A program made the position numbers and the translations under genes. From Candidatus Komeilibacteria bacterium (lineage in GTDB: Bacteria; Patescibacteriota; Patescibacteriia; UBA1558), in the NCBI GenBank assembly GCA_048538275.1, contig JBLYPW010000001.1, forward strand, positions 299,924 through 363,923: 64,000 nt of DNA. The letters are read 5' to 3'. The notes beneath the pieces were generated by a model. It searched no databases and had not been told where the DNA came from. It saw nothing but the letters and a program-made list of their open reading frames with translations. Of the stretch, positions 2,555 to 64,000 are shown in pieces; position 1 is the first letter of the stretch, and every line of letters begins with the position of its first letter.

Positions 2555-3575
2555 CTATTATTTCATCCAGATTGCCGTCTAGGATATTATTTAGATTATG
2601 TACAGTTAATTTTATACGATGGTCAGTGACACGATCCTGCGGCCAGTTATAGGTACGTATTTTTTCTGAGCGATCGCCGCTGCCAACTTGAGATTTGCGC
2701 GAGGCAGCTTCAGCTTGATGTTTGTCATCTTCTATTTTTTTTAATAAACGAGAACGTAGTACTTGCATTGCTTTCAGTTTATTTTGTTGTTGACTACGTT
2801 CGTCTTGACAAGAAACAACTATATTGGTGGGTAGGTGAGTAATGCGAATTGCTGAATAAGTAGTATTGACGCTTTGACCACCGTGTCCACCGGCGCAAAA
2901 GGTATCAATGCGCAAATCTTTGGGATTGATTTCTATGTCTATCTCTTCTGCCTCCGGCAAAACCGCCACAGTAGCTGCAGAGGTGTGAATACGTCCAGAT
3001 TTTTCTGTTTCGGGTACGCGTTGCACACGATGAACCCCACTTTCATATTTGAGACGACCATAAGCACCATTGCCAATAATTTCGACAATGATTTCTTTGT
3101 AGCCATTTAATTCTGTACGATTGGCAGCTACAATGTGTGTTTTCCAGCTGTGCTTTTCCGCATAGCGACTATACATGCGCCAAAGGTCAGCGGCAAATAA
3201 GGCAGATTCATCTCCTCCAGTACCGGCACGAATTTCTATAATGGCATTTTTTTTATCCATTGGATCTGATGGAATTAGCATTTGGTTAATCTCTGCTGCT
3301 AGCCTGGGTAATTCTTTGTGTAGTTTTTCCAATTCATCATTGATCATGGCTTTCATTTCTTCATCTGGTTCGGAATTGACTTGCTTTTCTAGATCACTTT
3401 GAGCTGCTTGTTTTTCAAAATAAGTAGATAGTGCAGCACTGATCTCTTTGCTTCTGCCATACTCTTGGGATAATTCTGCCAATTTTGCGCTATCATTAAC
3501 ATTGTCTGGATTTTGTAGATCAGCTTCCAGTTTCTTTATTTTTGTTTGGTATTCGGTGAGTAATTTTTTATCCAT
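2514..3575 (-). CDS. prfA: Peptide chain release factor 1
   Basis: GGQ motif ([10 protein letters not shown]), conserved RF1 core [21 protein letters not shown]; tripeptide reads PET rather than PAT/PVT. Confidence 0.9.
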
Positions 3576-3594
3576 AATTTTATTATAAAATAAA

Positions 3595-3629
3595 AAACCC
3601 TGTTGGCCAACGAGGGTTTTTTAGATAGT
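3595..3629 (-). terminator. Rho-independent terminator downstream of rpmE
   Basis: Palindrome ccctgttggccaacgaggg flanked by A-run/T-run. Confidence 0.5.
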
Positions 3630-3634
3630 AAAAG

Positions 3635-3925
3635 TTATTTTTCTTTAGCTTCTTCAGCGGCACGCTTGGCAGCTATTCTAATTTTCTTGGCTTTTTTACC
3701 TTTTCTTTCTTTAGCAACATCTGTTTGGCGAGCAATGCGTTTTTTAAATTTATCAACCCGACCAGCCGTATCTACTAGATTTTGTTTACCAGTATAGAAA
3801 GGATGACAGTTAGAACAAATTTCTACATGGATTGCTTTGATAGTAGAGCCAACAGTAAAACTATTGCCACAAGCACAAGTGACCTTAGCATTAGGATAAT
3901 ATTCTGGATGGATATCTTTTTTCAT
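3635..3925 (-). CDS. rpmE: 50S ribosomal protein L31 (Zn-ribbon form) with Lys-rich C-terminal extension
   Basis: [10 protein letters not shown]...CxC...[13 protein letters not shown]31 signature; ~30-aa K/A/E-rich tail. Confidence 0.85.
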
Positions 3926-4217
3926 AAAATAATGGTTAAATTAGATATTCGTGCAAGCGTCGCCAGTATAACAGAGGTGGGGCATAGTGTCAAGGGTTGT
4001 TTATTTAAGTAGTAAGTTTATTTAGTTTTGAGGATTGAGATTGGCCTGAGCATTGAATTATCGCTGATTAACAAAATTCAGCAGGCTCCAAAAATTTGTC
4101 AGCTATTTCCAAAAAAAAAGATTTTGATGATTTAGCATGTTCATAGTTTAACAAATTAGAGTGGTTTAGTCCACGCTATTATGTTATATTAGAGTTGTTC
4201 AATATTAGCGTCTTTCT

Positions 4218-4799
4218 ATGATAAAACGTTGTCCTTGGTGTGAGATAAATGATGAAATGATAGCTTATCATGATAAAATTTGGGGCGTGCCGGTGCGGCG
4301 CGATCGTGATATTTTTAAATTTTTTGTGCTGGATACTTTTCAAGCTGGTTTAAGCTGGAATATTATATGGCGTAAGCGGCAGGGATTTGCTCGGGCATTT
4401 GCTGATTTTGATTTTAATAAAGTGGCCCAGTTTAAGCAACGCAAAATAGAGTCAATGTTAAAAGATACCGGTATCATACGCAATCGCTTGAAAATTCAAG
4501 CTACCATTAATAATGCCCAGCGCTTTTTGGATATAAGACAAGAATTTAATACTTTTAGTCGTTATATCTGGCAATTTACCGGCGGTCAACCTAAGATAAA
4601 TAAATGGCAAAATATGAAGCTGATACCGACGTATAGTTCAGAATCTGATGCCATGAGCAGAGATTTAAAAGCGCGTGGTTTTAAATTTGTTGGTACTACC
4701 ATTTGTTATGCTTTTATGCAGGGCATAGGTATGGTAAATGATCACATTGTGAGTTGTCACCGCTATTCCGACCTTCAAGGTCTAAACCTTGAAGGTTGA
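4218..4799 (+). CDS. tag: DNA-3-methyladenine glycosylase I
   Basis: CPWC...YHDKIWGVP...QAGLSWNIIWRKR...IRNRLKI motifs typical of Tag. Confidence 0.8.
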   Translation: MIKRCPWCEINDEMIAYHDKIWGVPVRRDRDIFKFFVLDTFQAGLSWNIIWRKRQGFARAFADFDFNKVAQFKQRKIESMLKDTGIIRNRLKIQATINNAQRFLDIRQEFNTFSRYIWQFTGGQPKINKWQNMKLIPTYSSESDAMSRDLKARGFKFVGTTICYAFMQGIGMVNDHIVSCHRYSDLQGLNLEG

Positions 4800-4947
4800 A
4801 ATTCGAGCATCTTGCCAAAAATATAATATTATGTTAGCATAGCTGTGCTAATTAATTCACACATTTTGGCCAGCGACCATCCTCGGTCCAAGCTTGACTT
4901 GGTTCGCGGCCGCAAACAGTGTCAAAATGGCGGTAAAAAGGAAAAAT

Positions 4948-5685
4948 ATGACAACTAAACAAATGCCCGTAGTAGAGCTTATTGATCTACTTAAGGCCGG
5001 GGTACATTTCGGCCACACCAAGTCCAAGCGCCATCCAAATATGGAGCCTTATATTTTTGGGGTAAAACAGGGGATTAGCATTATTGACTTGGAAAAGACC
5101 CAACAAAAGTTGGGCGAAGCATTACGCTTTGTTCAAGACATAACTTCACGCAATGGAGTTGTGCTTTTTGTTTCTAGTAAACAACAAGCACAGGCTATCA
5201 TCAAAGAAGCGGCACAAAAGGCGGAGATGCCTTATATTAATACCCGTTGGCTGGGTGGTACTTTCACAAATTTTGATAATATTGTGAATTTGCCCAAGAA
5301 GTTAAAGCGTATGGAAGAGGAGCGGGCTAGTGGCCAATGGTCTCGTTATACCAAAAAAGAAGCTTTGGAAAAAGAAAGAGAAATGGAAAGATTGCGCGAA
5401 ATGGTAGAAGGCATTAAGAATTTGGAAAAATTACCTCAGGCTGTATTTATTGCTGATATCAAGAAAGACCAAACTGCTTTATACGAAGCTAATAAGATGA
5501 GAATCCCGGTTATTGCTATTTGTGATACTAATGTCAATCCAGTTAAAATAGATTGGCCAATACCAGGAAATGACGATGCGGTAAAATCAATTGATTTATT
5601 AACAAATTTAGTAGCGGATGCTTGTTTAGCGGGGAAGAAGAATGCAGTCCCGACCAGTGCTAAGAAAGCGGAGGATAGTAAATAA
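4948..5685 (+). CDS. rpsB: 30S ribosomal protein S2 (start chosen at MTTKQ; ORF track extends to 4894)
   Basis: LLKAGVHFGH...conserved S2 N-terminus; RBS aaaggaaaaat; rpsB-tsf-pyrH synteny. Confidence 0.9.
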   Translation: MTTKQMPVVELIDLLKAGVHFGHTKSKRHPNMEPYIFGVKQGISIIDLEKTQQKLGEALRFVQDITSRNGVVLFVSSKQQAQAIIKEAAQKAEMPYINTRWLGGTFTNFDNIVNLPKKLKRMEEERASGQWSRYTKKEALEKEREMERLREMVEGIKNLEKLPQAVFIADIKKDQTALYEANKMRIPVIAICDTNVNPVKIDWPIPGNDDAVKSIDLLTNLVADACLAGKKNAVPTSAKKAEDSK

Positions 5686-11192: not shown

Positions 11193-12275
11193 TTGTTATA
11201 TAATATAAACATGTCAACAGAACCAAAAGACAAAACATTGGTTATAGAAACCATAACTTGGTGGAAAAAAATATCTCGCCCTTTTAGTTTATCCGGAGAG
11301 CGTCAAGAAATTGTTGAACGCAACATTCGTGAAGAAGCTAAGGGGGATTTTGATTTTTTTACTTTATCTATATTGTCCGCCATTATTGTCACTCTGGGTT
11401 TGATTATTAATAGTGCAGCGGTCATTATTGGTGGTATGTTAATTGCACCATTGTTTTGGCCAATTTTGGCTTTATCACTCGGTATAGTTAAGGGGAGTGT
11501 GCGTTTATTAGAAACTTCTTTTTTTACTTTGGCTAAAGTAGCTGTTGTGATTTTATTGATCTCTTTTTTGATTGGTTGGTTGGCGCCAATTACTCAGTGG
11601 GATACAGAAATAATCAGCCGCACCCAGCCCACTCTTTTTGAATTAATAATTGCTTTAGTAGCGGGCTTTGCTGGTGCTTTTATTATTTCCTATCCAAAGT
11701 TAGAACAGGCAATTGCCGGCGTGGTAATTGCCGCAGCTTTGGTGCCACCTATTTGTGTATTGGGATTATCTTTGGCAGAGCAGAATTTAAATGCAGCCGG
11801 CGGTAGCATGTTATTGTTTATTGCTAACTTGATTGCAGTGACAGTGGCAGCTTCTATATATTTTCTTTTAGCACATTTTAAAACTTTGCAATATAGTGTG
11901 AGTAAGGAAAGACAAAGGCATAATTTGTTATGGTCAGCAGCTATTTTATTAATAATTTTTATTCCTTTATTGATTATTACCGGCAATACTATTCAAGATT
12001 ATCAACGTACATCGAAAGTAAAAAAAATAATGACTATGCAATTGCCCAATAGTGAGTTAGTAGATATGAACATCAGTCAAGTTGACAATGTTTATTATAT
12101 AAATACTACCATACGCTCTGCTCAAAATATTAGTCAGTATCGGATGGATTTGATAACCGATGCTTTGACCAAAGCTTTGGATTCGTCTGTACGTTTGCAA
12201 GTTTCTATTATCCCGGTATTACAGGGGGGTAAGGAAATAGATAATGGCAATACAAATTTCTTGCCCAATACATAG
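11193..12275 (+). CDS. DUF389-family integral membrane protein
   Basis: Repeated hydrophobic domain with GG.LIAPLF.PI and AGVVIAAALVPP motifs characteristic of DUF389/TIGR00341 proteins. Confidence 0.55.
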   Translation: MLYNINMSTEPKDKTLVIETITWWKKISRPFSLSGERQEIVERNIREEAKGDFDFFTLSILSAIIVTLGLIINSAAVIIGGMLIAPLFWPILALSLGIVKGSVRLLETSFFTLAKVAVVILLISFLIGWLAPITQWDTEIISRTQPTLFELIIALVAGFAGAFIISYPKLEQAIAGVVIAAALVPPICVLGLSLAEQNLNAAGGSMLLFIANLIAVTVAASIYFLLAHFKTLQYSVSKERQRHNLLWSAAILLIIFIPLLIITGNTIQDYQRTSKVKKIMTMQLPNSELVDMNISQVDNVYYINTTIRSAQNISQYRMDLITDALTKALDSSVRLQVSIIPVLQGGKEIDNGNTNFLPNT

Positions 12276-12475
12276 GCGAGTATTTTTTATAATAGTTTAT
12301 TCTTTGAGCACTTTATAAAAAGTGTTTTTTTTATAATTTAGCTAGACAAGGTGTTTTAGGGCACTATTTGATAGCTGTGATGAGCTATACTTGACAATAT
12401 TTGTATTGGGCGTTAAAGTGCTCTATTAACTATGAGCCGTCGCAATAGTAAGCGCCGTCTCTAATAATAGAGTAA

Positions 12476-22985: not shown

Positions 22986-24734
22986 ATGAGTATTGAAAAA
23001 AATGGTGGTTTTAAGTCTCCAGAATTTAGCTCAACACCTTCAATAGAACAAAAAGAGCAAGCAAAAGAAAAACTTTTACAAGAAGCATTGCAAGAGAGCT
23101 ATGAGTTAAATTTAAATGCGGGTCATATTGTACATGCAGAAAAAATTAGCGAAGACAGAGGAATAAGTTTAAACTCAGAAATATTCCAGATAGCGTATGA
23201 TGCACAAATAAATAAGGGTGATATATATACCGCTACTAGGGTAGCTAAGTTAGCCGAAGGCAAGGGATTGAAATTAACCCCCAAAGCTGAAAGTTTGCAA
23301 TTAGGCTATGAAAAAGCAATGGAAATGGGAAAAAAATACGATATTGAAAAAATAAAACAGTTTGCCCAAGAAAAAGGCATTAAACTAACAGTAAATAAGG
23401 ATGCTATCCAAAAATGGTGCGATTATGCGCTTGAGAACGGTGATAGTGGCATATTAAAAGAAATAAAAAAAATTGCCAAAAAAGAAAGAATAGAATTAGA
23501 AGTAAAAAAAGAAGTGTTGCAAAAGACTTATGATAAAAAACTTAATGAGTTAGAAGATTTGATCTCATTAACAGAAATTGAACAATTTGCTAAACAGAAT
23601 GACATTGATTTGGAAGTTAATAAAAAGATTCTGCAACAAGGGCTTGAAAATTATATAGAGTATGCAGCACCTAGAGAACCATATGAAAACTTGTTAGCTG
23701 ATGTTAAAAAAATTATAAATTTTGCCACTAAGAAGGGTGTTAAGATAAATATAGATGATATAGATGACAAAAAGGTACAAGAACTATATGAGAAAGGGTT
23801 AATAAATGGGGACAGTAGAATGATCAAAGGGATGAAAAATCTTGCCAGTGAGAAAGGCATAGATTTGGATATTCAAAAGTTAGATTTACAGGAATTATAC
23901 GATAAGTTTTTTACAGATGGGGAAATATATATAGCGCAACAGATAAAAGAAATAGGTGACGAAAATGGTTTAGAAGTTAAAGTCCCGAGTAAAGAAAAAA
24001 TACAAAAAAATTATGATATACTGTTAGCTTCGGGTAATCAATATGGAGCACTTAAAATACAACAATTTAGTGGTGATAATGGAATAGCGATTGAAATAAA
24101 AAAGGATATGTTACAAAAGGCGTATGAGACAATTTGTAATGGTAACATGGAGAGTGTGAACCTTAATTATATGTCCGACCTTGAAGAAATGGCTAAAGAT
24201 AATGGATATGAGATTGAAAACGCTAAAGAGCTAATTGAAAAAACTTATATTGAAGTTATTCATAATTTGAATATGGGCCATGCTGGTGCCAAAAGGGAGG
24301 GGCTAATAAAAAAACTAAAGGAACTAGGCTCTGATCTAACCTATGAAGATGTTATCAAGATGGATTATCTTGATTATTTAAAAGTACCAGAAGAGCAAAG
24401 ATTGAGCATACAAAAGACAATGGAAATAGATGGTGCGCCCATAAGGGTTAGCTTTTATGGTCAGAAGCAAGAAGCTCCGGTACATGGTAAGTTTATCATC
24501 GGCACAAGTACAGATAATGGTTTAGAGTTTGTTTTCGATAGTACATTAGGAGAACATGGGGATATTGGCAACAAATATAATTTAGAAGTGATTGGTGGTG
24601 GTTGGTTGGAAATAGATGAAATAAACAAGAAAATAAAGATTCACAGAAATAGTGAGGATTATGGTTATGAACCGAGGTCTATATCTAAAAGAGTGATAGC
24701 TGATACTTTCTCTGATTACGAGATTATAGTGTAG
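22986..24734 (+). CDS. Tandem-repeat protein (~9 helical repeats of ~38-40 aa) with distinct C-terminal beta-rich domain; no signal peptide; strongly AT-rich
   Basis: Repeating I..FA...GI.L.V.K..LQ..Y.....NG pattern through residues ~100-420; composition ~30% GC versus ~40% in neighbours. Confidence 0.6.
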   Translation: MSIEKNGGFKSPEFSSTPSIEQKEQAKEKLLQEALQESYELNLNAGHIVHAEKISEDRGISLNSEIFQIAYDAQINKGDIYTATRVAKLAEGKGLKLTPKAESLQLGYEKAMEMGKKYDIEKIKQFAQEKGIKLTVNKDAIQKWCDYALENGDSGILKEIKKIAKKERIELEVKKEVLQKTYDKKLNELEDLISLTEIEQFAKQNDIDLEVNKKILQQGLENYIEYAAPREPYENLLADVKKIINFATKKGVKINIDDIDDKKVQELYEKGLINGDSRMIKGMKNLASEKGIDLDIQKLDLQELYDKFFTDGEIYIAQQIKEIGDENGLEVKVPSKEKIQKNYDILLASGNQYGALKIQQFSGDNGIAIEIKKDMLQKAYETICNGNMESVNLNYMSDLEEMAKDNGYEIENAKELIEKTYIEVIHNLNMGHAGAKREGLIKKLKELGSDLTYEDVIKMDYLDYLKVPEEQRLSIQKTMEIDGAPIRVSFYGQKQEAPVHGKFIIGTSTDNGLEFVFDSTLGEHGDIGNKYNLEVIGGGWLEIDEINKKIKIHRNSEDYGYEPRSISKRVIADTFSDYEIIV

Positions 24735-25000
24735 AATTAGTTGATAATTTTTAGCACATCAGTTCAGACACTCTAATTTAAATTTATTATCATCAAACAT
24801 AAATTTAATATGTTTGGTTAATTTCACAATTTCTAATTCTAATATAATTTGTGAAAACAGGGGTGTCCGAAAGGTATCTCATCTTTTGCAGCCCATTATC
24901 AGGAATAATTATACAAACAAATATTTTGTTCACTCGGGTATAATAAGTTTTGTAGTTAGTTGGTTTTTAGTTTATAATAAAAAAAGAATAATTATTTTTT

Positions 25001-40300: not shown

Positions 40301-40375
40301 GCCGCCTTCGTCTAGTGGTTAGGACGCCAGGTTCTCATCCTGGTAACAGGGGTTCGACTCCCCTAGGCGGTACCA
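40301..40375 (+). tRNA. tRNA-Glu (anticodon CUC)
   Basis: Manually folded cloverleaf: acceptor GCCGCCT/AGGCGGT (G1-U72 wobble), D-arm GTCT/GGAC with 8-nt loop, anticodon stem CCAGG/CCTGG, loop TTCTCAT, 4-nt variable, T-arm AGGGG-TTCGACT-CCCCT, encoded CCA. Confidence 0.8.
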
Positions 40376-40386
40376 CGTCGTAGTCG

Positions 40387-40458
40387 GGTTTCGCCACTGC
40401 GTGCGACAGATCAAGTCTGTCTCACTGCGTTTGACTCAACCACGCCTACTCCTTGCTG
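40387..40458. repeat. 72-bp perfect direct repeat, copy 1 (GC-rich, contains 10-bp-stem hairpin)
   Basis: Identical to 40524-40595; internal hairpin gtgcgacaga-tcaag-tctgtctcac. Confidence 0.75.
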
Positions 40459-40523
40459 GTCGTGACTTAACCATTCACTTCGTTCATGGCCCAAGTCACT
40501 CCCAGTTTTTTTCAGTTTGATCT

Positions 40524-40595
40524 GGTTTCGCCACTGCGTGCGACAGATCAAGTCTGTCTCACTGCGTTTGACTCAACCACGCCTACTCCTTGCTG
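40524..40595. repeat. 72-bp perfect direct repeat, copy 2
   Basis: Identical to 40387-40458 (period 137 bp). Confidence 0.75.
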
Positions 40596-40707
40596 CTCAC
40601 CTCGTCATATGAGGTTCGTTCCTTACCCTTCGCCTTTCTCTGTTTATTCAGAATCAAGATTTATTTTAATGTCAGTTTTTTTTAGATAAAATTGTTATAA
40701 TAGATTT

Positions 40708-57996: not shown

Positions 57997-60561
57997 ATGA
58001 AAAAAAGTAGCCAGCTTAATAATAAAAATCAGTCACCGGTAGATTTTGATTTGGCAGATTTTTATATTGCAGAAGAAGAGTTGGTAGAGGAGATTGCAAT
58101 TAAAGCTAAAGCAAAGCTTTTGACTCAGTATGAGCTTGATAAACTTATCAATCAATCAACGCAGCAAACCGCTTGGCCGATTCGCAAAAACAATTCTCAA
58201 TTATTACCAACTTCACCACATATTTTAGATTTGCGTCGGCGTCTCCAAGTCCAAGAACAAGAGTTAGCTGCGCTAGAGAAAGATTTGGTACGGCAACAGA
58301 ATGTTATCAGTTGGCGTCAACGTTGGTTGTCCTTGGTTCATTGGCAATGGCAATGGCCAGAATTTAGTTGGCGACCTGCTTTATGGCAAAAGTTATCAGC
58401 TGTTCAATTTTTGATCAGTTGTGGTCTTTTATTATTTATGATTCTCAAAAATCTTGGTCGACTTCTTAGATTTTCTTTGCGGCGGGTTGTTGATTTTATC
58501 TTACATGTTTGGTTGGGATTTCAGAAAATTAAGCGGCATATTAGAGAAGGTTTGACTAATGTACAAGAGGCGAGCTGGCGACGTGGTTTACGACCGGCCG
58601 CTATGTTTGCTGTTATTGCGACGCTATTATTATTGCCTTATGCTGTATTTGGTATTTATCGCGATGCTCGTATTACAGAGGGTAAGGTTATGGGTATTAG
58701 CCGGACGGCAATAGATGGTTGGCAATTGGGTGTGGATGCTTTAGTGCAAGGAGATTGGCAAGCCGCTTGGCAAGCATTTGATCGGGCCGGCACTGATTTT
58801 AGTGACGCCACGTCTTTGATTAACAATTATCAATCTGTTTTATTGAATATGTCACAAAATATGCCTGGTGCTTTGGGTAGAGCAGCAAGCGGTCAGAGAT
58901 TATTATCCTTAGGTGAAAAATTGTCGGCCACAGTAGCTGATATTAGTAGTACTATACAGTCTAGTCAGGACTCTGAAATGGTATTGACTGATAAGTTGAG
59001 TCTTTGGTCCGAACACTTATCCCAGTGGCGCGACGTTTATAATGATATTGGTCCTGACTTATTAGCTATTCAAGTTGATTTATTGCCCATGCAGTATCAG
59101 GCGCCTTTATTGTATTGGCAAAAAAACTATCATTTGATAGAAAATTTATTGAATGAAAGCCAGTTGACTTTAGATTGGTTGAAGGTCACTTTGGGCGCCA
59201 ATCAACCACAACGTTATTTGATTATGTTTCAAAATAGTAATGAACTAAGAGCCACGGGTGGCTTTATGGGCAGCTTTGCTTTATTGGATGTAGCACAAGG
59301 GGAAATAAGCAATATAGAAATACCGGGTGGTGGCATTTATGCTTTGCAAGGTCAACAAAAAGAGTTTGTCGCAGCACCTTATCCTATGCAGTTATTGAGC
59401 AGTCGTTGGCAGTGGTGGGATGCTAATTGGTGGCCTGACTGGCCCACCAGTGCGCAGAAGATAGCTTGGTTTTATGAGAGAGCGGGCGGTGCTACCGTAG
59501 ACGGCGTCATAGCGATCAATAGCCAAGTATTGAGTGATTGGATGAATTTAGTTGGTCCAATTTCATTGCCCAAGTATGATAAAGAATTAGATAGCGCTAA
59601 TGTTATATTAGCATTACAACATGCTGTTGAATTTGAATATGATAAACAAGCCAATCGTCCCAAGAGTATTATTGGTGATCTATTTCCGGTTTTGATGCAG
59701 AGGATTTATGATTTGCCAGCTGATAAGTATGCTACCGCCCTCGGTCTTGTCTTGGATGAATTCAATCGCTCTGATATACAATTTTATTTTACTAATGATG
59801 AACAGCAAAATTATGTTGCCAATCATCGCTGGGACGGCAGTATCAAAAAAATCAATGGTGATTATTTGAATGTGGTGGCTACGAATATCGGTGGCGGGAA
59901 AACAGACGCCGTTATTAAACAAAAAGTTGATTATCAAATAAGCTTGGGGCCAGATGATCATCTTATCGCTAAAGTAGCTATCACACGCAGTCATCATGGT
60001 GATCAGGAGGATGTATTTGAACGCCAACGTAATGTTTCCTTCTTGCGTCTTTATGTTCCCTTGGGGAGCGATCTTATTCAAGTAAACGGCGCTATGCCCC
60101 CTGATGATAAATTATTTGAGAGCGTGGGTAATGATTTAGCAGCTGATAAAAATTTAATTGCGTTTGATGGTTTGCATTATTATGCTCCATTTGAAAAGTA
60201 CTATAGCGTAGAACAGTTTGGTAAGCAGGTTTTTGGTCAATGGCTGATGGTGGACCCGGGAGAGAGTAAAACTATTACTTTTATTTATCGTTTGCCTATT
60301 GCCGTTGAGCAGGTGACAAATAAAACTGGTTGGCTGCCCTGGTCGCATAGCACTGCCCAGCGACTGGTGTATAGCTTATATGTGCAAAAGCAGTCGGGTG
60401 ATTTAAATACGGAGTTTAATTTTGCCACTAATTTAGATGATAGTTGGCAGATAGAGTGGGCCAAGGACAGTGATGGCAACTTAGTTAAGCTGGGGAATTG
60501 GTTATCGTCTAGTCAGCCGCTGCAGCGCGATTATCAGCTTGGTTTTATAATTACAAAGTAG
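57997..60561 (+). CDS. DUF4012 domain-containing membrane protein
   Basis: N-terminal TM region and conserved RYLIMFQNSNELRATGGFMGSFALLDV motif characteristic of DUF4012. Confidence 0.6.
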   Translation: MKKSSQLNNKNQSPVDFDLADFYIAEEELVEEIAIKAKAKLLTQYELDKLINQSTQQTAWPIRKNNSQLLPTSPHILDLRRRLQVQEQELAALEKDLVRQQNVISWRQRWLSLVHWQWQWPEFSWRPALWQKLSAVQFLISCGLLLFMILKNLGRLLRFSLRRVVDFILHVWLGFQKIKRHIREGLTNVQEASWRRGLRPAAMFAVIATLLLLPYAVFGIYRDARITEGKVMGISRTAIDGWQLGVDALVQGDWQAAWQAFDRAGTDFSDATSLINNYQSVLLNMSQNMPGALGRAASGQRLLSLGEKLSATVADISSTIQSSQDSEMVLTDKLSLWSEHLSQWRDVYNDIGPDLLAIQVDLLPMQYQAPLLYWQKNYHLIENLLNESQLTLDWLKVTLGANQPQRYLIMFQNSNELRATGGFMGSFALLDVAQGEISNIEIPGGGIYALQGQQKEFVAAPYPMQLLSSRWQWWDANWWPDWPTSAQKIAWFYERAGGATVDGVIAINSQVLSDWMNLVGPISLPKYDKELDSANVILALQHAVEFEYDKQANRPKSIIGDLFPVLMQRIYDLPADKYATALGLVLDEFNRSDIQFYFTNDEQQNYVANHRWDGSIKKINGDYLNVVATNIGGGKTDAVIKQKVDYQISLGPDDHLIAKVAITRSHHGDQEDVFERQRNVSFLRLYVPLGSDLIQVNGAMPPDDKLFESVGNDLAADKNLIAFDGLHYYAPFEKYYSVEQFGKQVFGQWLMVDPGESKTITFIYRLPIAVEQVTNKTGWLPWSHSTAQRLVYSLYVQKQSGDLNTEFNFATNLDDSWQIEWAKDSDGNLVKLGNWLSSSQPLQRDYQLGFIITK

Positions 60562-60586
60562 AAATAATATTAACGTATATTTATAA

Positions 60587-60610
60587 ATGCCTAATATTGG
60601 GCATTTTTTT
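60587..60610 (+). terminator. Weak rho-independent terminator
   Basis: atgcc/ggcat stem followed by T7. Confidence 0.35.
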
Positions 60611-60631
60611 CTATTTATGTGGATAAAGTCC

Positions 60632-60802
60632 TTGACAGATAGTACATAATAGTGTATATTACAGTATTAAATAAAATGTTTTTTTGAAAAATATTTGAAA
60701 TTGTATTAATATAGACTTCATAAGGAGAGAGTCAATATTAGTATCCTAAAGAGATATTAATATTGTTTTAGGAAAACGACCTACTCTCTCTGGGTCGTTT
60801 TT
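60632..60802 (+). ncRNA. Candidate small RNA: sigma70-like promoter (TTGACA-17-TATATT, 60632-60660) to intrinsic terminator (cgacc/ggtcg + T-run, 60777-60802)
   Basis: Consensus promoter spacing; ~135-nt transcript region with long-range pairing ggagagagt (60724-60732)/actctctct (60783-60791); no ORF. Confidence 0.3.
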
Positions 60803-61587
60803 CTTTAATTAGCTGTAGGGGGGAGAGTTATTTGTCGGTACTGACCGAGGATTGACGGTTGGGATCGGCGCGGTTTATGCCTTTTAGGCAATATCCGGCC
60901 AGTCACGTGTGACGTGATTGAACTGGATTTTACCTGGACATAATCCATCGTTTAGTGGGTTTTTTATAAAGCCAATGCTAAACCAACTCTTCTACCTATA
61001 GCTAGTTAGAGAGGATATTTATAAAATGGAAATTAAAGTCGGGCGTACATTATATATTTATTAAATTCTCCCATCGCTTTAGTTTCCAGCTTATAAATAT
61101 TCTAGTGAGATCAGCGTAGGTGGGGCTAATAAAATGGTTTGTTGTAGTCCGTGTGATAACCATCAAGCTATTTAGTCCCTCGTACATTGATTTTAAAAAA
61201 CAATATTTACGGCAGTGGTTATCCAAAAAAGTTGTTGGTACAACCCCGGTCACCCGGTGGGATAACAATAGGGTTCGATTCCCGACATTGCCACGCAAGG
61301 AGAGAGCAATCTCTCCTTTTATTACCAGCATAGTGATTGACAACAGAACAATAAGGTGTAGAATGAATTAGCTAAGAGTCATCTTGGCTAGAGAAAACTG
61401 CGCCCGAACTGAAGGCTGAATTACAGGATTCTTTATTCTTCAATAAAACGGAGAATAAACTCTCTCCTTTAAGAATACTGTAACTCATGCAATCCTCTCA
61501 GTCGGGCGCAGTTTTTTGCTTTGTATAATGATATTGCCTTATGGTATAATTTTATTAATACAGAATTTATAAATCCTATGAAAAATT
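60803..61587. other. Non-coding structured region: T-loop-like ggttcgattcc (61272-61282), terminator-like ggagagag-caat-ctctcc-TTTT (61299-61322), large nested inverted repeat 61398-61517 with T-run, tandem TATAAT boxes 61524-61550
   Basis: No credible ORF (two overlapping antiparallel ORFs with random-looking translations); multiple predicted stable hairpins. Confidence 0.3.
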
Positions 61588-63510
61588 ATGGAAAATCCAG
61601 ACTGGCTAAAAAATAAATATAATGATTTACACAATACAAAAGAAGTAAAGTCAGCTGTTCGAGCAGAAGAGCAGTTTACTGGTGAAAAAGTACCACAGAA
61701 TCCAGAACAACAGATTCAAAGCTATTTAGATCGTTTAGAAAAGTTAGTCCTTGATCCAGATAAAAAGCAATCAAGGAAAATGATGGGTAAAGAGCAAAGA
61801 CCAAGAGCCCTATCCTTACTTAGAGAAATGGTAATGAATGAATATATTCGTCCTAATAAAGAAAAACTAGCAGAAGGAGCAGCCAGAGTAGAAGAAAGAG
61901 CAGCTAGGAACTTAGGAATGGATATTGAATATGGAGAAGAACAATTAGAACAAAGAGGTGAAATAGCTATAGAAGATTTAGAAAAATCACTAGATAATTG
62001 GATTTCTTATCTTTCAGATGCTAATGAACCATATCCAACTTGGTTTAGATATTATGCTTTTAGAAATATATTAAAGCTAGGAGATTATGATAAAGACAAA
62101 AAAGAGTTTACCAAGAGAACTAAAGGTAGTACTAAACTATTCCCCGAAATAGATAGGGGAGCCTTAGCATATATACAGCAAAATATAGAAGCTTCTAAAG
62201 ATCCTAAAATACTTGCCAAGCTTCAAGAAGCACAAAAACAAGCAGCTAATGGTGATGTTCCAGAAGATCAGCTTATCACCAAAGAAAAGGTACAAAACTT
62301 TTCTAATCTTTCCTTTGCTAAGCAATATGCAGAAGGAATATCTAAAAATGGTGAAATAACCCCAGAGCTTAGAGCCATAACAGAAGGTAAATGGGTTAAG
62401 TATCAACAAGGTACAGAACCAACAGCTCTTTGGTCATCTCTACAAAACAAAGGCACAGCTTGGTGTACAAAAGGTTTTGCTACAGCCAAAACTCAACTTG
62501 AAGGTGGAGATTTTTATGTATATTACACATTAGATAAAAAAGGCAGTCCTACTATTCCTAGAATAGCTATAAGAATGCAAGGAGAGAATGTAGGAGAAGC
62601 CAGAGGAGTAGAAGACAGTGATCAGAATATGGAAGGTAATATGATAGCTATTGCCGAAGAAAAGCTAAGTACACTTCCAGGAGCTGAAAGCTATAAAGAA
62701 AAAACAGCTGACATGAAAATGCTTACTAGTATATATAACAGACATAAGCAAGGAGAAGAACTTATAAAAGAAGACCTTATCTTTTTATATGAAATAGATA
62801 AACCTATTCAAGGCTTTGGTTATAAAAAAGATCCGAGAATAGAAGAAATACGAGACAAAAGAGATGTAACCAAAGATGCATCAATTGTATTTGAATGCAC
62901 TCCAGATCAAATAGCTAAAAATATTAATGAAGTAAATGAAAATACAGTAGCATATATAGGGCAATGGAATATACCAGCTTTTCAAGTAATTAAAAACCAT
63001 CCCAATATTATTTACTTTTATGAATCTTTCCCAGATAAAAAGATATTCATGCAAACTCTAGAAACAGATCCTAGTATAGATTCACCTGATACAGCCAAAC
63101 AGTCTCTTAAAGATAAGAACATCTATCTTTCAGATTGGGGAAAGGATATTTTAGAAAAAACAGAGTTTAGTAAAGAAAAACAAGAATATGATTTAGTGAG
63201 ATTTACAGTAGAGCAATTAGGATTTCCAAATGGTGCTACTACTGATGAAATATATAATAAAGCTCAAGAGCTCGGACTTGAATTATGTCCAGCTGAAATT
63301 GGACCTCAATTAAGATTACAAAGTACTAGTAAGGAATGGATGCTTATTGCTATGAAACAGATTATAGACCGTGATGGCGCTCCGTCGCTGTTCGATCTGC
63401 GTGATGATGGTTATCAGCTGGTACTGAGCAGCGACGGTGCTTGGTCTGACGGCAGGTGGTTTTCGGACGGTAGGTTTGTGTTTCATTACCGCCCCAGTAG
63501 CAAAGCGTAG
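61588..63510 (+). CDS. Orphan 640-aa hypothetical protein; AT-rich body with abrupt GC-rich 3' end
   Basis: Long uninterrupted ORF, charged/low-complexity N-terminus, no signal peptide; composition shift at ~63360. Confidence 0.5.
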   Translation: MENPDWLKNKYNDLHNTKEVKSAVRAEEQFTGEKVPQNPEQQIQSYLDRLEKLVLDPDKKQSRKMMGKEQRPRALSLLREMVMNEYIRPNKEKLAEGAARVEERAARNLGMDIEYGEEQLEQRGEIAIEDLEKSLDNWISYLSDANEPYPTWFRYYAFRNILKLGDYDKDKKEFTKRTKGSTKLFPEIDRGALAYIQQNIEASKDPKILAKLQEAQKQAANGDVPEDQLITKEKVQNFSNLSFAKQYAEGISKNGEITPELRAITEGKWVKYQQGTEPTALWSSLQNKGTAWCTKGFATAKTQLEGGDFYVYYTLDKKGSPTIPRIAIRMQGENVGEARGVEDSDQNMEGNMIAIAEEKLSTLPGAESYKEKTADMKMLTSIYNRHKQGEELIKEDLIFLYEIDKPIQGFGYKKDPRIEEIRDKRDVTKDASIVFECTPDQIAKNINEVNENTVAYIGQWNIPAFQVIKNHPNIIYFYESFPDKKIFMQTLETDPSIDSPDTAKQSLKDKNIYLSDWGKDILEKTEFSKEKQEYDLVRFTVEQLGFPNGATTDEIYNKAQELGLELCPAEIGPQLRLQSTSKEWMLIAMKQIIDRDGAPSLFDLRDDGYQLVLSSDGAWSDGRWFSDGRFVFHYRPSSKA

Positions 63511-63550
63511 CTTGCTACGGGGCAAGCAAGTTAGAAACTTAGAAATTTTG

Positions 63551-63597
63551 CCTGCCTGCCGAAGCTTCGGCGTAGGCAGGATCCTTTGTTTTTTTAA
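63551..63597 (+). terminator. GC-rich rho-independent terminator
   Basis: Nested palindrome cctgcctgccgaagcttcggcgtaggcagg followed by TTTGTTTTTTT. Confidence 0.6.
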
Positions 63598-63739
63598 TTC
63601 TTTGATTTCTTTGACGCTTTGATACTTTGCCTGTCCATCGTAACAACTGTTCATGTTTCGCATACAGGTAGGTTGATGCAGGTGGGATTATTTTAGGTGG
63701 ACAAAATTGTAATTTTTCCCTATAATAATAGGGATTTTT

Positions 63740-64000
63740 ATGTGGCATAGATTGTGGCACAAATTAATAACAACCGTAACTGGTGGGGCAGTATTGATTG
63801 CCTTTTTTTCTATTATATCCAAGGTAATAGGTCTTTTTCGTGATCACTTATTAGCTAGTAATTTTGGCGCTGATCAAACTTTAGATATTTATTATGCCAG
63901 TTTTCGTTTACCTGATTTTATATTCAACACCTTGGTGTTGGGAGCATTGTCAGCGGCTTTTATACCTATATTTGTCAAACTATGGCACAACAATGAAGAA
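63740..64000 (+). CDS. murJ: Lipid II flippase MurJ (N-terminal 87 codons; continues beyond window)
   Basis: GLFRDHLLASNFGA...DIYYASFRLPDFIFNTLVLGALSAAFIPIF matches the conserved MurJ/MviN N-terminus; open to window end. Confidence 0.6.
   Translation, partial: MWHRLWHKLITTVTGGAVLIAFFSIISKVIGLFRDHLLASNFGADQTLDIYYASFRLPDFIFNTLVLGALSAAFIPIFVKLWHNNEE

Follow-up and report, generated by a model that had tools for sequence, protein, structure and literature searches.

The 3′ end of a 640-residue gene on the forward strand of a Candidatus Komeilibacteria contig (JBLYPW010000001.1) is, with a probability of about 0.9, the variable region (VR) of a target family of the diversity-generating retroelements (DGRs) of Patescibacteria, also called the Candidate Phyla Radiation (CPR). 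The gene occupies 61588..63510 of the 64,000-nt stretch that was analysed, here termed the window, as supported by the open reading frame (ORF) call, homologues and alignments, in which the gene body is conserved. It is an unannotated CPR DGR target with a known mechanism and two twists: the retroelement cassette is absent, and the VR boundary carries an inserted hairpin of a recurrent type. The initial annotation of this DNA rightly described an ORF of 640 aa, its AT-rich body and an abrupt composition switch at ~63360, and took the switch for a recombination junction or an inserted GC-rich cassette at the end of an orphan gene.

The gene family and its retroelement

The label of orphan gene is wrong. 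A protein search with a threshold of E<=1e-3 finds more than 1,585 homologues, a count that is a lower bound, at 58-70% identity across Patescibacteria. The best 120 of these are all ~630-660 aa long, share 57-97% identity with the query and come from many patescibacterial lineages. Lineages with homologues include Komeilibacteria, Magasanikbacteria, Giovannonibacteria, Yanofskybacteria, Moranbacteria, Buchananbacteria, Woesebacteria and others. Alignments reveal strong conservation of the first ~590 residues and a hypervariable stretch of the last ~45 on a fixed scaffold, DRDGxPxVFxL...G..L.L....A.P..RW.....FVFR.RK.

The source of this variability is evident in relatives that retain their retroelement. 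A survey of 84 distinct loci from genome and metagenome collections includes 53 with at least 2.5 kb of downstream sequence, which were considered informative. A reverse transcriptase (RT) gene and a template repeat (TR) are both present in 21 of the 53, within ~2 kb downstream of the target gene; part of a cassette is present in 7, and no cassette lies within 10 kb in the other 25. At locus L003, which encodes a 62%-identical homologue, 130 nt of the 3′ end are repeated past the gene (VR 11757-11885, TR 12231-12362), and each mismatch between the two is an A in the downstream copy, the pattern of TR-A to VR-N substitution. A bAvd gene on the opposite strand, named DivGenRetAVD by NCBIfam, and an RVT_1 reverse transcriptase gene adjoin the repeat. 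Across 19 TR/VR pairs from family loci, 344 of 366 core mismatches fall at TR adenines. The TR-encoded peptide is well conserved in the family (…DRDGNPNVFNLERNEDGLWLNDNWAKPDNRWNPDNEFVFRLRK) and rich in AAY codons, and the TR of cassette loci with the usual orientation begins 280-400 nt past the stop codon. VR, TR, Avd and RT following these genes constitute a canonical DGR. The family order, target-TR-avd(reverse)-RT, differs from the mtd-avd-TR-brt order of the Bordetella phage BPP-1. Cassette loci also display a conserved TTTTTTGGTATAAT-like extended -10 motif ~90-110 nt past the stop, followed by a ~200-nt leader before the TR; the cassette-less loci L005, L070 and L074 retain the promoter-like motif.

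In the cassette-bearing relatives, the DGR reverse transcriptase, aided by Avd, would reverse-transcribe the TR RNA and copy template adenines as random bases. The resulting cDNA would then replace the VR, rewriting ~20 AAY-type codons on the fixed scaffold (DRDGxPxVFxL...G..L.L....A.P..RW.....FVF).

Homology to the family VR/TR pairs places the window VR at 63367..63492 on the forward strand (residues D594-R635), with a mutagenised part at ~63367-63474 and a constant 3′ part at 63475-63492 that encodes FVFHYR. The window VR has the same 42-codon frame and scaffold residues as the rest of the family, and its codons predicted to derive from AAY lie within residues 596-629. Full-length identity to cassette-linked targets, VR frame included, is 46-73% (for example L053, L003, L065 and L102).

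Two close relatives provide evidence of rewriting. P0001, a 97%-identical protein with the locus tag ACKKL5_00390 from a Komeilibacteria metagenome-assembled genome, has 0 differences from the window protein in residues 76-599 and 11 in residues 600-625. With template positions taken from the TRs of relatives rather than from the genome of the window, 9 of these 11 differences fall at codons whose first or second base is A in 20-26 of the 26 family TRs, and the other two at codons for which this holds in 7/26 and 12/26. L005, a Komeilibacteria locus with DNA available, aligns to window positions 61577-63485 without a break across the composition switch, at 81.5% nucleotide identity. Its VR differs from that of the window at 38%, 32% and 16% of first, second and third codon positions, compared with 14%, 9% and 30% in the gene body (Fisher p = 2.6e-5). 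The difference patterns of P0001 and L005 are DGR signatures independent of the TR. The remaining P0001 differences are 11 substitutions that all lie within residues 5-75 (window 61588-61812), a cluster that suggests a recombination tract reaching the 5′ end from the non-conserved upstream region.

Could the tail simply evolve fast, under relaxed or diversifying selection and with no retroelement involved, or could the gene be an assembly chimera? The fact that no TR is available for the genome of the window is compatible with such an account. However, codon positions 1 and 2, mostly in codons with an AAY-like counterpart in the family TRs, account for the variation, while third positions and scaffold are fixed, and relatives carry physically linked TR, Avd and RT. 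A chimeric assembly, which the initial annotation had kept in view, is excluded by two independent sequences, since P0001 has the same architecture and the L005 alignment is unbroken. Either version of this explanation is scarcely credible.

The composition of the tail can be accounted for by the same retroelement. The gene body (61588-63359) has 33.4% GC and 42% A, and the last 151 nt of the gene have 54.3% GC and 17% A. The change is abrupt at ~63360: the 150-nt interval starting there has 54% GC, and the maximum of 56.7% is reached at 63373. Intervals of 150 nt as GC-rich as the tail make up 0.23% of all those in the 64 kb (whole-window mean GC, 38.4%), with only the tRNA-Glu region at ~40300 being higher. 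The initial figure of ~60% GC was overstated, as the measured range is 54-57%, and the change is mostly a loss of A. G rises from 19% to 33% between body and tail as A falls from 42% to 17%, so that the GC-richness of the tail is mainly due to adenine depletion. Scaffold codons would have to avoid adenine to remain constant, and mutagenised adenines would turn into another base three times in four; an adenine-free scaffold combined with replacement of A by mutagenesis would thus cause A to fall and GC to rise. GC-rich segments flanking the mutagenised region are a general DGR feature (Wu et al. 2018, PMC5758913).

A recombination junction at ~63360, or fusion of an AT-rich gene to a GC-rich cassette of foreign origin, would also produce a step in composition, and the step at 63360 is indeed among the top 1.2% of steps in the window. 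Moreover, the last five codons, the stop codon and the terminator hairpin are small lineage-specific insertions (see below). This explanation is nevertheless very improbable, and it is refuted for the boundary itself, because D594-R635 are homologous in the same frame and at the same length across the family alignments and the L005 nucleotide alignment runs uninterrupted through 63360. The same switch occurs in every family locus, whatever the GC content of the genome: tails of all members examined are A-poor and GC-rich (GC 0.45-0.70, A 0.11-0.25) relative to gene bodies of GC 0.30-0.57 and A 0.27-0.42. The change in composition therefore belongs to the VR itself and does not mark a junction. 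Relatives contain the same full-length gene with the same tail, an observation that the initial annotation had named as speaking against its own proposal. Its suggestion that the GC-rich 3′ module might be a repeated element also fails, as a repeat search, blastn with word size 7 and an adenine-tolerant scan found no second copy in the window. A second AT-rich, A-skewed stretch, with 31% GC and an AT skew of +0.3, lies at window 23001-25000 and resembles the body of the target gene in composition.

Taken together, these features resemble those of known CPR DGRs (clade 2 in Roux et al. 2021, PMC8144416; the ‘CPR set’ in Wu et al. 2018, PMC5758913): a C-terminal VR in a patescibacterial host, adenine-specific TR-to-VR mismatches with Avd and RT in relatives of the window gene, and a single target gene without a recognisable domain or transmembrane segment. 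The window differs in having no cassette, and about half of the surveyed family loci are such orphans.

Hairpins at the 3′ end of the gene

Folding of 63470-63610 as DNA yields -28.3 kcal/mol (z = -5.3 versus shuffles), and the two GC-rich hairpins of the initial annotation are both borne out. Hairpin 1 (stems 63491-63523) encloses the TAG stop codon at 63508-63510. The 3′-end alignment and the fold assign it to a lineage-specific insertion of 35 nt at 63493..63527 on the forward strand, between the invariant ...CGC and AAGT... of the family. The insertion is absent from L005 and four other aligned homologues. It supplies the last five codons and the stop, converting the ancestral ending ...RKLET* to ...RPSSKA* and giving the protein a new C terminus, PSSKA*. 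The ancestral 3′ end of the gene, AAGTTAGAAACTTAG, now lies untranslated at 63528..63542 on the same strand, where 3′-end alignment and flank comparison identify it with the conserved ...AAG TTx GAA ACT TAG ending of the family and folding reveals a small AAGTT/AACTT hairpin at 63528-63540.

A second insertion of ~23-30 nt, relative to the same five homologues, forms hairpin 2 (63551-63580). Together with the T-run at 63584-63597, TTTGTTTTTTT, which starts 3-4 nt past this stable hairpin, it makes up a probable intrinsic terminator at 63551..63597 on the forward strand, as judged from the fold, the T-run and the alignment gap. A simple consensus terminator scan did not list hairpin 2. The idea of inserted DNA in the initial annotation thus holds for these two small insertions, which provide the end of the C terminus, the stop codon and the terminator hairpin, but not for the 63360 boundary. 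CCTGCC...GGCAGG palindromes are often found at Patescibacteria loci, possibly as generic terminators. CTTTGA-type short repeats follow at 63598..63633 on the forward strand (TTTGA at 63601, 63610 and 63618); they are kept 3′ of the stop in most family loci, and CTTTGA-like repeats stand directly past the stop at, for example, L053 (11918-12400), L011, L015 and L024.

Insertions at the same site also occur in distantly related family members: L027 (~11914-11950), L020 (~11915-11950) and L008 (~11886-11906). Like that of the window, they start with CC... and end with ...GGGCA[A/G]GC|AAGT, and their inner stems differ. In addition, L039 (11909-11928) and L045 (4403-4418) have a CCTGCC...GGCAGG hairpin at about the same place. 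Close pairs differ, the insertion being present in the window and not in L005, and in L008 and not in L001, which indicates that insertion is recurrent. All insertion-bearing loci are cassette-less where the context is known, and no cassette-bearing locus has such an insertion. The counts, 5 of ~21 orphan loci versus 0 of ~20 cassette loci, are too few to be firm, and the association of hairpin insertion with cassette absence is an unexplained one in small numbers. Hairpin 1 was also considered as a dispersed mobile element; matches to CGGGGCAAGC elsewhere (L056) lie in tRNA-like sequence and look coincidental.

A precedent for such a structure is the mtd target site of BPP-1. The sequence at the 3′ end of a VR that marks where mutagenic homing starts is termed IMH (for initiation of mutagenic homing), and a GC-rich inverted repeat downstream of the IMH is a general DGR feature (PMC5758913). 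In the Bordetella phage, a GC-rich hairpin/cruciform just 3′ of the VR is needed for efficient homing and the sequence of its stem is free (Guo et al. 2011, PMC3240598); figures of BPP-1 show the target-gene stop boxed within the drawn hairpin region (PMC3240598). The window is similar in that a GC-rich constant, IMH-like segment (63475-63492) ends the VR, a GC-rich inverted repeat with the stop inside (hairpin 1) lies directly downstream, and between family loci the stem sequence varies with the structure kept. By analogy, hairpin 1 would occupy the position of the BPP-1 inverted repeat that promotes retrohoming. Unlike the phage element, the window hairpin was inserted recently, and most family members do not have it.

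The missing cassette

Several observations weigh against a VR in the window that is served by a DGR. No TR is found in the 64-kb window by blastn with word size 7 or by an adenine-tolerant scan, and neither RT nor Avd by tblastn with the L003 proteins or a YxDD motif scan of the ORFs. The 5′ end of murJ (63740..64000, forward strand; Pfam MurJ, E 4.5e-9) starts 230 nt past the stop of the target gene, and because of this start at 63740 there is no room downstream for a TR-avd-RT cassette. A degenerate pattern of the cognate TR, in which non-A bases of the VR may be A, has no match in the genome and metagenome contig collections, and the cognate TR for the window VR is unproven. Homing could be impaired by the 35-nt insertion, which stands between the VR and the conserved sequence downstream; hairpin 1 has no 4-nt GRNA loop of the phage-DGR type and its stem is bulged. 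The in-frame stop in L005, the nearest orphan relative, indicates that copies without a cassette can decay. Wu et al. (PMC5758913) report remote targets, those >100 kb away from the RT, only in lineage 4 and its neighbours and not in CPR DGRs. Finally, the assignment of a C-type-lectin fold to the VR domain, discussed below, is weak.

The scope of some of these negative results is limited. The VR itself is also unmatched by the TR pattern, which places the source genome outside both collections scanned. The best 120 of at least 8,000 RT homologues include no Komeilibacteria entry, a result that is uninformative. No near-identical metagenome contigs were found for a population-level comparison of VRs, the best being 81% identical.

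The cassette is thus missing within 62 kb upstream and 0.5 kb downstream of the gene. With no TR, RT or Avd present and murJ adjoining, the gene is either a copy diversified from elsewhere in the genome or a recent fossil. The HYRPSSKA ending that derives from the insertion is common to P0001 and the window protein, whose VRs nevertheless differ at 11 codons; this implies that VR rewriting took place after the insertion and very recently. The chance is somewhat better than even that a cassette elsewhere in the genome rewrites the VR in trans to this day or did so until very recently. Remote-target DGRs are known from Treponema denticola and Legionella (PMC5758913), and the window resembles them in having a recently diversified VR without an adjacent RT or TR. 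It differs in that no cassette has been located for its genome, trans action being inferred.

Alternatively, the VR may be a fossil: the cassette was lost, and the tail keeps VR composition and scaffold but is no longer rewritten. The P0001 differences would then predate the loss or stem from allelic recombination. This is a serious possibility that we hold to be less probable than continued rewriting. A fossil would explain a window devoid of RT, Avd and TR, and it has parallels in the 25 of 53 informative family loci without any cassette within 10 kb and in L005, the closest orphan relative with DNA, which has a scrambled stretch as well as its in-frame stop. The 35-nt insertion, moreover, coincides exactly with the VR boundary, the place that specifies homing. 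On the other hand, the window gene is intact, and a P0001 protein that is identical over residues 76-599 has 11 VR differences, mostly at TR-adenine codons, with HYRPSSKA common to both. The L005 copy itself (3098-5008) is cassette-less, with its stop at about residue 254 and the scrambled stretch near residue 515; it may be a decaying pseudogene, or these defects may be sequencing errors.

A bolder proposal is that distant DGR cassettes may still rewrite orphan VRs in trans, with the GC-rich hairpins as part of homing; on this view the inserted hairpins could be an acquired cruciform ‘beacon’ that marks a remote target, or the scar of aberrant cDNA integration. This combination is rather unlikely, and trans rewriting of orphan VRs would, if true, be new for CPR DGRs.

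The protein, its surroundings and implications

As the initial annotation stated, the protein has no recognisable domain. It has no match in Pfam, NCBIfam or PADLOC, and a profile search against PDB sequences found nothing; that statement needs only the addition that PHROGs provides a single weak match (E 0.024), to phrog_31575, a family without an assigned function. With a maximum Kyte-Doolittle(19) score of 0.46, the protein is hydrophilic; it has no signal peptide or transmembrane segment and is probably cytoplasmic. This agrees with the finding that CPR DGR targets typically have neither transmembrane segments nor recognisable domains (Roux et al. 2021, PMC8144416).

An AlphaFold model has a mean pLDDT of 79 that exceeds 90 in the C-terminal half. 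C-type-lectin-like domains head the Foldseek list of PDB structures, at weak E values (E >= 0.6). A small C-type-lectin-like domain that binds ligands probably carries the VR; a compact ligand-binding module is the most likely nature of the VR domain. Three metagenome loci (L104, L105 and L106) match the query only from residues ~398-424 to 635, and the C-terminal half, VR domain included, may be fused to different N-terminal parts in some genomes.

The gene body gives a different signal. Against viral structures (BFVD), the top three Foldseek matches are each named ‘PcfJ-like protein’ (E 2.4e-3, 2.7e-2 and 6.3e-2; TM-scores 0.10-0.15), and Wu et al. (PMC5758913) name ‘PcfJ-like protein’ as one of the few motifs located upstream of the VR in targets of CPR DGRs (their category g). 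The likeness to PcfJ-like proteins (PF14284) consists of these weak fold matches of the model to viral structures. TM-scores are low, however, and the Pfam PcfJ model has 0 matches in the window protein and all 73 members of the family alignment, even at E<=10. The PcfJ-like signal is therefore a lead and not evidence of membership.

Upstream of the gene, direct reading of the sequence suggests a possible extended -10 promoter element, TGGTATAAT, at 61542..61550 on the forward strand, 38 nt 5′ of the ATG. A consensus promoter scan did not call it, and no -35 element accompanies it. The preceding ~1 kb (60562-61587) contains no long ORF and has no similarity in any family locus. It does contain two strong promoter-like sites, at 60632-60660 and 61337-61364 (each with 11/12 matches), a terminator-like hairpin at 61302-61315, a long-range stem that pairs 61400-61408 with 61502-61510 and is followed by a T-run, and a tRNA T-arm-like GGTTCGATTCCC at ~61274. 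This region could hold unknown small RNAs. An Rfam search of the whole window at gathering thresholds found only tRNA-Glu and an L10 leader, and a relaxed Rfam search of 60400-64000 found nothing meaningful. Directly after the tRNA-Glu gene (40301-40375), two 78-nt direct repeats (40384-40461 and 40521-40598) are 97% identical and 137 nt apart, in what is the most GC-rich spot in the window (58%). The repeats may have arisen by duplication of an integration site or may represent a repeated RNA element.

What appeared to be a chimeric orphan gene becomes a recognisable DGR target in a group, the Patescibacteria, in which DGRs are known to be common. Its composition switch has a mechanistic explanation in adenine avoidance combined with A-to-N mutagenesis. 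A conserved AT-rich gene whose last 130 nt are poor in A and rich in GC, with a hairpin at the stop, may serve as a signature of DGR targets even where the contig does not extend to the RT and TR. The family is very large, unusually conserved, without a transmembrane segment and about half cassette-less, which makes it well suited to studying possible trans action of CPR DGRs and the ligands of a hypervariable protein that is apparently intracellular.

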